IMG/VR virus record: IMGVR_UViG_2788500553_000001
Span: 1-60,996 of that record
Source of the DNA: a virus
Strand: one strand, 5' to 3'
Length of the DNA stretch: 60,996 nucleotides
Part shown: positions 1,602-9,002 of the stretch, one piece after another
Numbering within the stretch: position 1 is the first letter of the stretch
Layout: every line of letters begins with the position of its first letter
Program-made: the position numbers and the translations under genes
The notes under the pieces: model-generated
What the model was told of the DNA's origin: nothing
Database searches by the model: none
The model's input: only the letters and a program-made list of their open reading frames with translations

Positions 1602-2918
1602 ATGGCGCTCACCCCACGCGAACAACTCGCGTCGGAACGCCACCGGATCGAGGACGCCGTCGGCGATTTTCTCACCGCCGACGAGGCCAATCGCATCCTT
1701 ACGTTCGCCGACGCACTCGACGACAGCACCGTCAGCGAAAAATACCGCGACCCCGACGGCGAACTCCAAACCCACGCCCCGAAGACGATCAAGAGTTACA
1801 TCAGCGGCATCCGCCTCACCGCCCGCGAGGGCGTCGACCTCACCGACACGACGGCCGATGAGGTCAACGAGCAGATGAACTGCTTTCACGACGACGACGG
1901 CCTCTCGAAGTCGACACTCGGCGTCCGGCAGTCGGCGCTGAAGGCGTTTTACAACCATCACGACGACCTCGGCGTCGACCCTAACGACATCGTCCGCTTC
2001 AAACCCGACAAGTCGAGTAGCGTCGACGAGACGGATATGTTCACGGCCGACGAAGTCGAGGCCCTCCGTCGCGCGGTCGGCGAGACGCAACTCCCGCTCC
2101 GCAACCGCGCGTTTCTCGAACTGTGTATCTTTACCGGCCAGCGCAAACTCGCTCTTCTCACACTCCGCCTCCGCGATGTCGATGTCGAGAACGGCTACAT
2201 CTACCTCAACGACGAGTTCGAGGCCGAAAACGCCGGCCTGAAGGGCGCCCTCGAACGCGGCCGGAAGCGTCCCATGTTCGGCGCGACCAAGTACGTCCGT
2301 GACTGGCTCAACCATCATCCGCACCGCGACGATGACGACGCGTGGCTGTTCATCCCCGACCCGAGCAACGCCCAGTCGAGTACCGGCGACTACTGGTCGG
2401 AGCCGTCCGTCGAACGCCTCTTCTCGCGCGTCGCCGACACGGCCGGCATCGACGACAAGCCGGTCAAGCCCCACAACTTCCGGCACTTCTGCGCGACGGT
2501 CCTGTATCGCGACTACGATGTCGATACCGACACGATCCGGATGCTCCTCGGGCACTCCGATACGAGTCGCACGCTCGAGAAGACGTATAGCCACGTTTTC
2601 GACGAGGACTATGTGCGGAAGGCCGAGGAGGCGATGGGGTTCCGCGATGCCGACGAGGACGACCGAAAGGCGCTCACGCCCGAGACGTGTCCGACGTGCG
2701 GCACGCTGATCGAGCCGGACTGGCGCTCGTGTCCGAACTGTAACGCGGTGTTCGGACCAGAAGAGGAGGTGAAGGTTGCGGCGGATGAAGTCGAGGACGA
2801 GGCAACGGACGCTGCCCTTTCCCGCGATTTGAGCGAAGACGAACGCGAGGGGCTACGAACGCTGCTGTCTCTCGTCGACGATCCGGCCGCGCTCGCGAAG
2901 AAGCTCGACGACGTGTAA
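1602..2918 (+). CDS. int: Tyrosine integrase with C-terminal zinc ribbon
   Basis: Catalytic motifs TGQR, HNFRH, LLGH and YSH; CPTC...CPNC zinc ribbon. Confidence 0.93.
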   Translation: MALTPREQLASERHRIEDAVGDFLTADEANRILTFADALDDSTVSEKYRDPDGELQTHAPKTIKSYISGIRLTAREGVDLTDTTADEVNEQMNCFHDDDGLSKSTLGVRQSALKAFYNHHDDLGVDPNDIVRFKPDKSSSVDETDMFTADEVEALRRAVGETQLPLRNRAFLELCIFTGQRKLALLTLRLRDVDVENGYIYLNDEFEAENAGLKGALERGRKRPMFGATKYVRDWLNHHPHRDDDDAWLFIPDPSNAQSSTGDYWSEPSVERLFSRVADTAGIDDKPVKPHNFRHFCATVLYRDYDVDTDTIRMLLGHSDTSRTLEKTYSHVFDEDYVRKAEEAMGFRDADEDDRKALTPETCPTCGTLIEPDWRSCPNCNAVFGPEEEVKVAADEVEDEATDAALSRDLSEDEREGLRTLLSLVDDPAALAKKLDDV

Positions 2919-7373: not shown

Positions 7374-7716
7374 GTTCGACGACCTCCAGCGTCGCGGGGA
7401 TCGTTTGCTCGCCATTGCTCCGTTCGACAGCGAGTCTGTCGATATGCCGACCGACGTACACCCGCGTCCGGGGCGTTCCTTCACGTTCGATGTGAAGCCG
7501 CTGCTCGTACGGCTTCGTCTGATACCACTCCGCCGTCGGCATCCGCAGGACGATGTTATCCCGGTCGGATGCGACCGCGATTTGAAACTCATGGCCAATG
7601 CCCTGACACGTCACGAACTGCTCTTCTGGCGTCAGATGCCGCTCGACATATCGAATCGGCAAGCGCACGAACGACCGCGACGCATCGATAACGGAGAGTT
7701 CCACGTCAGTCGGCAC
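7351..7716 (-). CDS. Hypothetical protein
   Basis: 121-aa ORF with plausible composition, overlapping both neighbours. Confidence 0.5.
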   Translation of the reverse strand: MPTDVELSVIDASRSFVRLPIRYVERHLTPEEQFVTCQGIGHEFQIAVASDRDNIVLRMPTAEWYQTKPYEQRLHIEREGTPRTRVYVGRHIDRLAVERSNGEQTIPATLEVVEHGILPES

Positions 7717-8125
7717 CGGCAGTCACCTCCGACAGTTTTTGCTGAATTGAACACTTCACTTCATTTTGGTGTTCCTTCTCAGTGTGTCGGAAGTAACTCG
7801 GATAGGGGTGATACTCACCTGTGCCTTGGTCGAACACCAACACCTCGGCTTCGAGGATCGTCTCCGGCAGCAGCGCCGCCATGAACCCCCACGCCCCGGA
7901 CACCTGAAACGGCACGATGTACCGGTCGTTGAGCAGGTCGTCGGCCTGCGCCGCCAACTGCTCTCGATCGAGTTCGTGGTTATTGAAGTTCCAAATCGTC
8001 ATCCCGGCGACGCGGCGCGGACTCAACGCCCGCCGCCTGACGAACGATACCACCTCGTCGGGCGTCGTGCCGTTCTCGACCAGCAGCGCGTCGTCGAGAT
8101 ACGGCGTCCCGAAGCTCTGACTCAT
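7706..8125 (-). CDS. Hypothetical protein
   Basis: Start reassigned to MSQSFG (8125), preceded by GGTGA and the 24-nt repeat. Confidence 0.65.
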   Translation of the reverse strand: MSQSFGTPYLDDALLVENGTTPDEVVSFVRRRALSPRRVAGMTIWNFNNHELDREQLAAQADDLLNDRYIVPFQVSGAWGFMAALLPETILEAEVLVFDQGTGEYHPYPSYFRHTEKEHQNEVKCSIQQKLSEVTAGAD

Positions 8126-8133
8126 CGTCGTTT

Positions 8134-8157
8134 CACCGGCGGTCGGTCGCCACCCAA
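8134..8157 (-). repeat. 24-nt direct repeat, copy following the 59-nt tRNA-like element
   Basis: TTGGGTGGCGACCgACCGCcGGTG; 22/24 identical to 8445-8468. Confidence 0.9.
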
Positions 8158-8215
8158 ACAACCGCGGGGAATTGAACCCCGCCACGGAGAGTAACTCCGT
8201 TACGCCAGCGGTTGC
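8157..8215 (-). ncRNA. 59-nt D-armless tRNA-like element
   Basis: Acceptor GCAACCG/CGGTTGT, linker CTGGCGTA, hairpin ACGGAG-TTACT-CTCCGT, T-arm CGGGG-TTCAATT-CCCCG, discriminator T. Confidence 0.65.
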
Positions 8216-8439
8216 TGCCCGGTTTCGAGGTCTTCTAACTCGATTCGGGCGTCGTCGTTGTCTGTCTCAAGACACGCTGCGAACAGCTCCAACGCTTCTT
8301 GGGGCGAATCACCCCGCACCGGCCTGTCAAGCTCCTCGTTTTCAACTTGCCAGCCCGTTCGCTCTTCATCGGTAATCCGATCGCGGAGCCGTACCTCTCG
8401 CAACGTCAATTCTACCTCGGTTAGCTCGGTTTTCGGCAT
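8200..8439 (-). CDS. Small acidic protein (possible HicB-like fold)
   Basis: MPKTEL...WQVENEELDRPVRGDSPQEAL; G-x-S/T-x-x-EAL resembles the HicB N-terminus; start at 8439. Confidence 0.55.
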   Translation of the reverse strand: MPKTELTEVELTLREVRLRDRITDEERTGWQVENEELDRPVRGDSPQEALELFAACLETDNDDARIELEDLETGQQPLA

Positions 8440-8444
8440 ACTGA

Positions 8445-8468
8445 CACCAGCGGTAGGTCGCCACCCAA
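8445..8468 (-). repeat. 24-nt direct repeat, copy following the 167-nt tRNA-like element
   Basis: TTGGGTGGCGACCtACCGCtGGTG. Confidence 0.9.
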
Positions 8469-8635
8469 GCGGGTGGAGGGACTCGAACCCTCGATTCAGC
8501 CGCCCCCAGTCGAACACGAGAAGCGTCGCGTCCCGGTGGCAGGATTACTCATGGCCTCGACAGCCAACTCCGGAGGAATACGCGGAGCGAATACTGGAGG
8601 ATGGGCCTCGACTGATACCTTCACAGCACACCCGC
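8468..8635 (-). ncRNA. 167-nt tRNA-like RNA with a large insert in place of the anticodon loop
   Basis: Perfect acceptor GCGGGTG/CACCCGC, T-arm GAGGG-TTCGAGT-CCCTC, helix CAGTCG/CGGCTG, variable loop AATC, D-region containing GG. Confidence 0.7.
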
Positions 8636-8654
8636 AAAAATGAGAGTTAGCGCA

Positions 8655-9002
8655 CTACGCCTGATCCGCCACGTCGTCGCGGGCATCGAGGATCGCGCCG
8701 ATGAGACTCGCCTTCGACAGCCGCATCGGGTTCTCGATGCCGAGCCGCTCCGCCTTCGACTCCAGTACGTCGACCGACTGATCGGCGAGGCGGCGACGTA
8801 CGACCATCCGGTCGAGGTCGCCCTCGTTGTCCTCACCCGCTGCCGTCGATGGAGCGGGCGCATCGCCGTCGCGCTCGATCCGCACCGTTCCGTCGTCGTA
8901 GACGACGGTGTACGCGTCGAGCGCGGTCGCGATGTAGTCGAGGTCGTCCTCGGTCGTCGCGGCCCGCGTTTCGCCGTACAGGACCGTCTCGCGCTCGCTC
9001 AT
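8655..9002 (-). CDS. Hypothetical protein with C-terminal Rho-N/SAP-like helical motif
   Basis: LADQSVDVLESKAERLGIENPMRLSKASLIGAI resembles the Rho N-terminal domain. Confidence 0.6.
   Translation of the reverse strand: MSERETVLYGETRAATTEDDLDYIATALDAYTVVYDDGTVRIERDGDAPAPSTAAGEDNEGDLDRMVVRRRLADQSVDVLESKAERLGIENPMRLSKASLIGAILDARDDVADQA

Follow-up and report, generated by a model that had tools for sequence, protein, structure and literature searches.

TLS1 is a 168-nt tRNA-like element on the minus strand (8468-8635) of a haloarchaeal provirus. The stretch of DNA analysed here, the window, is the complete IMG/VR record IMGVR_UViG_2788500553_000001 (60,996 nt), a provirus cut from a 173-kb contig (assembly GCA_002727095.1). 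A sequence-only reading had described the locus as an RNA shaped like transfer-messenger RNA (tmRNA) in an archaeal virus. The virus was rightly named, as the locus is situated within the genome of a haloarchaeal tailed virus with Druskaviridae-like gene content. For the shape, we favour another explanation, which we consider evenly poised between right and wrong: TLS1 would be a t-element derived from a tRNA, at which RNase P and tRNase Z set the ends of mRNAs. As part of this explanation, TLS1 would be a virus-borne descendant of a tRNA of the tRNA-Thr(CGU) type and would no longer decode. We read TLS1 in this way because the parts it has retained are those recognised by RNase P, tRNase Z and the CCA-adding enzyme.

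An insertion of 87 nt would have parted the 5' strand of the anticodon stem from its loop, the variable region would have grown and the D-stem would have been largely lost. The survivors would be the 12-bp coaxial stack of acceptor stem and T-arm, the T-loop and a GG-containing linker able to form the elbow. TLS1 would be co-transcribed with the flanking minus-strand genes and cut by RNase P at its 5' end (8635) and by tRNase Z past the discriminator (8468). The downstream mRNA would then begin exactly at a conserved leader with a small 5'-terminal hairpin before the ribosome-binding site, and a stable tRNA-like 3' structure would end either the upstream mRNA or the released element. The leader itself might stabilise the mRNA or act on its translation.

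Anatomy and ancestry of TLS1

The RNA runs on the minus strand from its 5' end at 8635 to its 3' end at 8468 and comprises the following parts:

8468..8635, minus: TLS1, the whole tRNA-like element of 168 nt, from the sequence, the minimum free energy (MFE) fold and a weak tRNA-Thr(CGT) call of ARAGORN in intron mode
8629..8635, minus: acceptor 5' strand GCGGGUG, 7/7 Watson-Crick pairs with 8475-8469
8616..8628, minus: D-region, a GG-containing linker of 13-14 nt; family members have similar GG linkers
8608..8614, minus: 5' strand CAGUCGA of a long-range helix with two alternative partners
8521..8607, minus: 87-nt insertion at tRNA position 31/32 (ARAGORN -i), with no flanking bulge-helix-bulge (BHB) motif upon enumeration
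8507..8520, minus: anticodon-loop-like CUCGUGU (8520-8514; U33, CGU, G37) and helix 3' strand UCGACUG (8513-8507), from ARAGORN -i
8493..8508, minus: variable region of 16 nt, whose CGGCUG nearly duplicates CGACUG of the helix 3' strand
8476..8492, minus: T-arm GAGGG-UUCGAGU-CCCUC, aligned by the Rfam mascRNA model
8468..8475, minus: acceptor 3' strand CACCCGC (8475-8469) and discriminator U (8468)

The acceptor stem, the T-arm and the 14-nt D-region pointed out in the sequence-only reading were all recovered on this strand (7/7 pairs; GAGGG-UUCGAGU-CCCUC; GG). Acceptor and T-arm form a stack of 7+5 bp in which every pair is made, with T-loop GGUUCGAGUCC, and both are retained in the MFE fold. 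A T-arm whose adjoining 7 nt pair with a 7-mer located 25-220 nt upstream is found three times in the window, always at TLS1 or at the neighbouring element TLS2 (see below), compared to a mean of 0.3 in dinucleotide shuffles.

Between the acceptor 5' strand and the T-arm lie 136 nt, about 110 of which are inserted bases. Here, several pairings compete. In helix A, CAGUCGA pairs perfectly with UCGACUG at 8513-8507. In helix B, which is adopted in the MFE fold, the pairing is shifted by one base and UCAGUCG (8615-8609) meets CGGCUGA (8502-8496). This is the CAGTCG/CGGCTG pairing that had been proposed from the sequence, and it leaves the D-region stemless. Past an 8-nt bulge, the MFE fold adds an 8-bp helix, CCUCCAGU/ACUGGGGG, which corresponds to the extended CCCA/TGGG helix described earlier. 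Alternatively, a 3-bp D-like stem CUG/CAG can form between 8626-8624 and 8614-8612. The loop CUCGUGU obtains its perfect 7-bp helix CAGUCGA/UCGACUG only if the 87 nt between them (8607-8521) are ignored. An internal repeat, TCGAGGCC(C)AT, that had also been noticed is located at 8611-8601 and 8560-8551. Because the folding energy of the whole molecule is ordinary compared to shuffles (z = -0.82), there is no sign of a special structure in the large insert.

Other identities were considered for the insert and rejected. As a nested tRNA, it shows local similarity to tRNA-Thr (P=0.018) and, overlapping with it, to tRNA-Asp (P=0.05 as the maximum over 46 tRNAs), both too weak. As a mobile element, the 87-nt insertion has no second copy in the window or in the loci that were fetched for comparison (designated by L numbers). 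C/D-box guide RNAs are reported for haloarchaeal tRNA-Trp and tRNA-Met, but no properly spaced pair of boxes C and D was seen by eye in the insert, and no Rfam snoRNA family matched. Two plus-strand open reading frames (ORFs; 8258-8650 and 8473-8643) have a non-coding position-specific GC pattern and no family match.

Judged from its sequence, TLS1 is likely descended from a tRNA-Thr(CGU)-like gene. When T-arm and acceptor 3' strand were searched against 121 Halobacteria genomes, the closest matches (3 mismatches) were tRNA-Thr(CGU) in most and tRNA-Leu(UAA) in the rest. With U73 included, TLS1 agrees over T-arm and acceptor 3' strand with tRNA-Thr(CGU) at 23/26 positions. Among the 46 tRNAs of one complete genome, tRNA-Thr(CGU) is the top match to the 3' part of TLS1 (score 40, next 32). 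In addition, ARAGORN -i reports a weak tRNA-Thr(CGT) at c[8468,8633] with an 87-nt intron directly 3' of the anticodon-stem 5' strand. This model has a good anticodon arm, but its acceptor is shifted and mismatched, its D-stem has 3 bp and its variable region 16 nt; when the true acceptor is used, the D-stem disappears. A Thr(CGU) origin is proposed on two independent lines, the similarity of the arms and the anticodon-like loop CUCGUGU in the ARAGORN model. The 5' end of TLS1 resembles tRNA-Leu(UAA), a tRNA with A73 and a long variable arm, to about the same degree, and derivation from tRNA-Thr is therefore likely, not proven. Compared with cellular tRNA-Thr(CGU), the acceptor of TLS1 shows a compensated double change, C3:G70 to G3:C70.

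That TLS1 is a tRNA-like RNA gene and not a standard tRNA is supported by the tools. ARAGORN in default mode calls neither a tRNA nor a tmRNA in the window. In Rfam, nothing matches TLS1 at gathering scores, and the only relevant match at E<=10 is the mascRNA model (18.1 bits); the tRNA family RF00005 matches at neither level. A large insertion stands in place of the anticodon arm.

Minihelices followed by a conserved leader

TLS1 does not stand alone. A second tRNA-like element, TLS2, lies 311 nt downstream, and each of the two is followed by the same short motif:

8157..8215, minus: TLS2, a D-armless tRNA-like element of 59 nt with acceptor GCAACC(G) and T-arm CGGGG-UUCAAUU-CCCCG
8449..8467, minus: leader motif 1, UGGGUGGCGACCUACCGCU, starting one base after the discriminator; then GGUG and ATG 8439-8437
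8138..8156, minus: leader motif 2, UGGGUGGCGACCGACCGCC; then GGUGA and ATG 8125-8123

In TLS2, a 12-bp stack is combined with a GG linker (CUGGCGUAA) and a 5-bp hairpin, and the element matches the Rfam mascRNA model with 25.1 bits (E=0.003). A 79-codon ORF located between the two elements has its final codons and its stop codon (8202-8200) within the acceptor 5' strand and linker of TLS2.

The leader common to TLS1 and TLS2 reads UGGGUGGCGACC(U/G)ACCGC(U/C). It starts one base after the discriminator, ahead of GGUG and the ATG. At TLS1, this GGUG after the leader UGGGUGGCGACCNACCGC is Shine-Dalgarno-like. In its general form, UGGGUGGCG-ACCNAC-CGCC, the leader comprises 18-19 nt and folds into a hairpin of 4-5 bp, (U)GGCG/CGCC(A), with a loop of 4-7 nt. 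The stem co-varies in L019 (GGCA/UGCC), and the loop length varies in the three haloarchaeal genomes L155, L162 and L168.

Further leaders were sought by exact-pattern scans of viral and metagenomic contigs. Most of the metagenome matches were discarded as coding coincidences (WVATHR peptide). The 18-mer was found intergenic in unrelated viral and metagenomic contigs with GC contents of 40 to 60%. Leader-bearing loci are L021, L022, L025, L026, L028, L030-L032, L048, L078, L087, L096, L109, L129, L134, L150, L155, L162 and L168. On unrelated viral contigs (GC 40-65%) and in three haloarchaeal genomes, unrelated small ORFs have the leader, as UGGGUGGCGACCNACCGC(C), in front of their ribosome-binding site and ATG. 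Except in L078 and L168, 5-24 nt separate the leader from the start of the next ORF, and the flanking proteins of these loci are unrelated to one another. In L030, L031, L032, L048, L096 and L150, the leader directly follows a tRNA-like minihelix. In the bacterial-type phage contigs L025, L109 and L134, it directly follows promoter-like sequences. In L025, the promoter is sigma-70-like, and an intrinsic terminator and the ribosome-binding site AAGGAGG are also present.

Two observations on the leader loci stand by themselves. The low-GC bacterial-type phage contig L025 carries three tandem leaders 340-660 nt apart (oriented 6284, 6944, 7282). Each of them precedes a small ORF, one of which encodes a pentapeptide-repeat protein, and two copies read AGGGUAGCGACC... 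In L026, a type-P5 twister ribozyme (2588-2647; 52 bits) is located about 600 nt upstream of the leader.

A combined T-loop-plus-leader pattern search also matched Halocatena marina, Halomarina oriensis and a Halosimplex metagenome-assembled genome. Together with TLS1 and TLS2 from the window and with L021, L031, L048, L096 and L150, this yields ten elements. They were compared in a pairing table anchored on T-loop and leader, which replaced MAFFT/RNAalifold alignments (TLS1 versus L021; minimal elements) that were out of structural register. The ten elements have unrelated sequences and form 11-12 of the 12 pairs in the stack (6-8 in the acceptor and 4-6 in the T-stem). In all ten, the leader begins 1-2 nt past the element. 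The inner part between acceptor and T-stem is 8-11 nt long in the minimal forms, reaches 26-27 nt in both TLS2 and L150, and extends to 92 nt in L021 and 136 nt in TLS1. For most of the members checked, an upstream ORF terminates at most about 35-60 nt before the leader, close to the 5' boundary of the element (TLS1: 190 nt). TLS1 itself is an unusual and probably degenerate member.

That tRNA mimics serve as processing signals is already known. In plant mitochondria, t-elements direct RNase P and RNase Z to mRNAs, which may even be cut within a reading frame (PMC1920247). They are non-canonical cloverleaves that keep the T-arm motif GGTTCRANYCC and the acceptor stem (PMC1920247), and they flank protein genes on the 5' or 3' side, where the cut is sometimes made within or at the end of the reading frame. 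The same features recur here. D- and anticodon arms of TLS1 are non-canonical or missing, and TLS1, TLS2 and the eight others share the 12-bp stack and a T-loop of the GGTTCRANYCC type. Plant t-elements define mRNA ends, whereas cleavage of the present elements is predicted. In contrast to those of plants, the present elements are viral (archaeal and bacterial) and stand in exact register with an 18-19-nt leader hairpin and a ribosome-binding site, and TLS1 has a middle domain of 110 nt.

Similarly, t-elements work in Haloferax, where tRNase Z also matures the 5' end of 5S rRNA (PMC6546412, PMC7714728, citing Hölzle et al. 2008). Here the host lineage is shared, and haloarchaeal RNase P and tRNase Z are known to act on tRNA-like flanks and to free the neighbouring RNA with exact ends. 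The Haloferax volcanii cases presented there differ in that they concern an rRNA precursor and engineered CRISPR RNA cassettes, not viral mRNAs, and share no leader motif.

The mascRNA/MEN-beta family (RF01684) also consists of acceptor and T-arm with a reduced remainder, and mascRNA is processed by RNase P and RNase Z to end a longer transcript. The scores of TLS1 (18.1 bits) and TLS2 (25.1 bits) both remain below the gathering threshold of 42.5 bits, and the family is vertebrate. TLS1 and TLS2 are not homologous to it and resemble it in design. YrlA Y RNAs of bacteria and phages are tRNA mimics bound by Ro60/Rsr and substrates of RNase P and the CCA-adding enzyme (PMC4201824). They, too, carry a tRNA-like module in a larger non-coding RNA that may be phage-encoded (PMC4201824). 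However, YrlA adjoins a TROVE/Ro60 gene and carries GNCGAAN0-1G. The VWA protein encoded near TLS1 is CobT-like. A Y RNA/Ro60 system was rejected, as no TROVE (PF05731) match was found in the window or in five motif-bearing viral records.

If RNase P and tRNase Z cleave as proposed, archaeal tailed viruses would use a 'tRNA punctuation' of their mRNAs and, to judge from the contigs, some bacterial viruses would do so as well. Such punctuation has so far been documented for organelles and a few cellular RNAs. This would also explain why viral 'tRNA slots' often hold genes that are rejected by tRNA finders: They may be processing signals and have no part in decoding, a point of importance both for annotation and for arguments on viral tRNAs that are based on codon usage. 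The invariant leader of 18-19 nt, which recurs before unrelated small ORFs in unrelated viruses, is a testable candidate for a new cis-acting element.

A bolder proposal, which we regard as rather improbable, is that minihelix and leader constitute an undescribed intercistronic RNA module exchanged among viruses of bacteria and haloarchaea. Universal tRNA-processing enzymes would punctuate polycistronic transcripts at this module, and the leader would either protect the 5' end or make a T-box-like UGGN:NCCA contact through which tRNA status would be linked to the translation of small early or accessory genes. In this case, TLS1 would be the largest known member, in transition from a tRNA-Thr. 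No description of recurrent intercistronic tRNA-mimic modules locked to an invariant leader was found for archaeal or bacterial viruses, and a literal motif search returned unrelated papers only.

The tRNA slot in related viruses

In the window, the order is AAA+ ATPase, VWA protein, small ORFs, TLS1, 79-codon ORF, TLS2, gene-54 homologue and Hef-type nuclease. The neighbours of the two elements are:

8655..9002, minus: upstream ORF of 115 aa, with its stop codon 19 nt before TLS1
8200..8439, minus: 79-codon ORF between TLS1 and TLS2, acidic, no family match, GC content at codon positions 1/2/3 (GC1/2/3) = 0.71/0.38/0.64
7706..8125, minus: homologue of HVTV-1 gene 54 (phrog_27711)

TLS1 borders protein genes of the same strand on both sides: The stop codon of the 115-aa ORF precedes its start by 19 nt, and 28 nt lie between its end and the ATG at 8439. 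HVTV-1 and HCTV-1 have an ordinary tRNA-Gln(UUG) between the VWA gene and gene 54, followed by a GC hairpin and an ATG. TLS1 occupies this slot, as the order AAA ATPase, VWA, tRNA-Gln, gene 54 and Hef nuclease matches. The whole provirus contains no canonical tRNA gene detectable by ARAGORN or Rfam.

Further relatives, L019 to L023, were found via the gene-54 protein. A tRNA or tRNA-like element precedes the gene-54 homologue in every relative examined except L023, whose sole tRNA call, a tRNA-Val, lies downstream of it. In the other four, the slot contains:

L019: a near-tRNA with 26.9 bits, slightly below the Rfam cut-off
L020: a tRNA-Asn(GTT)-like gene, interrupted by 65 nt at the anticodon-loop edge that also bears the insertion of TLS1, and two more long tRNA-like genes
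L021: a tRNA-like element of 123 nt with acceptor GCCGGGG/CCCCGGC and the same T-loop UUCGAGU
L022: an acceptor-like stem without a T-arm

Evidently, tRNA genes degenerate in this slot. In L020 (3247-3990), the three consecutive tRNA-like genes of about 130-145 nt lie beside a weak LAGLIDADG-like ORF, and the first of them, the tRNA-Asn(GTT), has its insertion at 31/32 without a good BHB. The L021 element (300-422), a possible homologue of TLS1, is situated together with the same leader directly upstream of the gene-54 homologue. Compared with cellular tRNA-Thr, its acceptor has another compensated pair, U6:A67 to G6:C67.

Weighing the explanations

Several findings weigh against a t-element. 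TLS1 is a singleton: Its 5' half and its insert have no sequence homologue in IMG/VR, where its 3' half finds bacterial-phage tRNA-Leu-like genes and other unrelated tRNAs only, and a phage collection yielded no DNA match. L021 is the only possible homologue, and it aligns poorly. A TTTTT run of the minus strand (8636-8640) abuts the 5' end of TLS1, 14 nt past the upstream stop codon. It could terminate archaeal transcription, which bears on read-through into TLS1, and no TATA-like box was visible when the sequence was read by eye. At TLS2, an RNase P cut would strip the mRNA of the 79-codon ORF of its stop codon, which looks costly. The leader also occurs after promoter-like sequences that lack a tRNA-like element and therefore does not need a tRNA mimic. 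Furthermore, the middle of TLS1 (about 110 nt) folds no better than shuffles, and a t-element model assigns no detectable purpose to it. Finally, a merely decaying tRNA gene would look alike.

It is possible, if on balance unlikely, that TLS1 is just that: a viral tRNA-Thr pseudogene broken by an insertion and local duplications and devoid of function, whose arms and leader are not yet eroded. The anticodon arm is split without a BHB, the D-stem is eroded, the variable region is enlarged, internal repeats are present and the insert lacks a structure signal. To this may be added that TLS1 is a singleton and that the slot is plastic among relatives, ranging from a real tRNA to L022 without a T-arm. 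Against decay stand a stack in which 12 of 12 pairs are perfect while everything between them is scrambled, and the compensated double change in the acceptor relative to the closest cellular tRNA. The same selective retention is seen in ten elements of unrelated sequence, with the leader in exact register.

TLS1 could also be a functional tRNA-Thr(CGU) that contains an intron, but we deem this improbable. The 87 nt at 31/32 would be removed by the host endonuclease via an unseen structure or by some unknown or viral activity, and an 81-nt decoding tRNA would result. This would agree with the Thr(CGT) call of ARAGORN -i, with its clean loop CUCGUGU (U33, purine 37) and a perfect closing helix of 5-7 bp, with the resemblance of U73, acceptor and T-arm to cellular tRNA-Thr(CGU), and with the tRNA-Asn(GTT)-like gene of L020, which is interrupted by 65 nt at the corresponding edge of its anticodon loop.

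All archaeal splicing endonucleases recognise a BHB, i.e. a 4-bp helix between two 3-nt bulges. In archaeal tRNAs with BHB introns at 37/38 or at non-canonical sites, the anticodon arm is likewise interrupted by tens of nt; TLS1 differs by lacking the defining BHB and by its non-canonical D-arm and variable region. All 3-4-3 motifs were enumerated, with one mismatch also allowed, and the spliced products were run through ARAGORN. In the positive control, a cellular haloarchaeal tRNA-Arg(TCT) whose intron measures 29 nt, the enumeration recovered a strong canonical BHB (h=7, H=4, h'=9), and splicing left a clean tRNA of 75 nt. In TLS1, only short chance motifs were found and none yields a tRNA; ARAGORN made many weak, mutually inconsistent calls on the products, none of them convincing. 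The sequence-only reading had likewise failed to form a BHB. At the splice sites chosen by ARAGORN, the required 4-bp helix AGUC/ACGC is unable to form. A one-deletion cloverleaf scorer proved too rigid even for the L020 control and was dropped.

Moreover, the spliced product would be nearly devoid of a D-stem. It would carry a variable region of 16 nt, a class-II length foreign to tRNA-Thr, and G37 in place of the A37 of cellular tRNA-Thr(CGU). The Rfam tRNA model is negative, and in the possible homologue L021 ARAGORN detects no anticodon arm even with introns allowed. A point in favour of splicing is that RtcB is encoded by related viruses (PMC8651126), including HCTV-1, which carries it besides tRNA-Gln. 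The window itself contains no RtcB, and repair or splicing dependent on a viral RtcB was rejected for this reason.

It is quite improbable that the locus acts at the DNA level as an att/attC-like recombination site. In this case, the tRNA-like 3' half and the leader would form a junction for swaps of small-gene cassettes, and the RNA fold would be secondary. A 46-nt direct repeat (8134-8179 and 8445-8490; 76% identity, 311 nt apart) brackets the 79-codon ORF, which is absent from HVTV-1 and HCTV-1 and has a GC3 of 0.64 versus 0.78-0.88 in its neighbours. This ORF looks like an inserted small-gene cassette. Similarly, the genes flanking the motif differ wholly among loci, and one phage contig has three tandem units of leader and small ORF. 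However, the conserved features are pairing with free sequence in acceptor and T-stem plus a tRNA T-loop, which points to selection on RNA. In addition, no recombinase is consistently adjacent, and the integrase of the window (1602-2918) is located about 5.5 kb from TLS1. A role as the provirus attachment site was rejected: The 3' half of TLS1 has no second copy in the window that would mark the provirus ends, and virus genes syntenic with HVTV-1 lie on both flanks.

Very improbable, too, is a tRNA mimic that serves as regulator or decoy in trans or in cis. Once it had been processed and CCA had been added, its NCCA end would pair with the UGGN of the leader in a T-box-like manner and tune translation of the next gene, or it would absorb a host nuclease directed against tRNAs in defence. 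The leader opens with UGGG directly after the discriminator, and its sequence GGGUGG..ACC..ACCGC presumably resembles that of T-boxes. T-boxes are not known from archaea, however. In T-box leaders, UGGN:NCCA pairing is the sensing contact (PMC7778990). Here, the UGGG is invariant while the discriminators vary between U, C, A and G, and the leader has neither Stem I nor specifier. The T-box family RF00230 has no match at E<=10 over either leader (8350-8750, 8100-8300), and no link was seen between the locus and a defence system.

A tmRNA-like ribosome-rescue RNA, finally, can practically be dismissed. The topology speaks for it: As in the tRNA-like domain of tmRNA, acceptor and T-arm, a stemless D-loop and a large insert without an anticodon arm are present. 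ARAGORN in tmRNA mode (-m) makes no call over 8468-8635 even at a lowered threshold, and no Rfam tmRNA family matches TLS1 at E<=10. The third acceptor pair (GCGGGUG/CACCCGC) is G3-C70 instead of the alanine identity pair G3·U70 of tmRNA, and the virus record has no match to SmpB (PF01668). Neither tool detects a tag frame or pseudoknots at the locus, the latter not modelled explicitly, and ARAGORN finds no resume codon there. The sole ORF of the insert, seen by eye, is an AUG-started frame of 18 codons that is not tag-like, and the inserts of the smaller relatives measure merely 8-27 nt. For the original tmRNA claim, the outcome is deflationary, and trans-translation in archaea gains no sign from this locus. 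Any tRNA mimic that has been deprived of its anticodon and D-arms would generally take on this 'tmRNA shape'.

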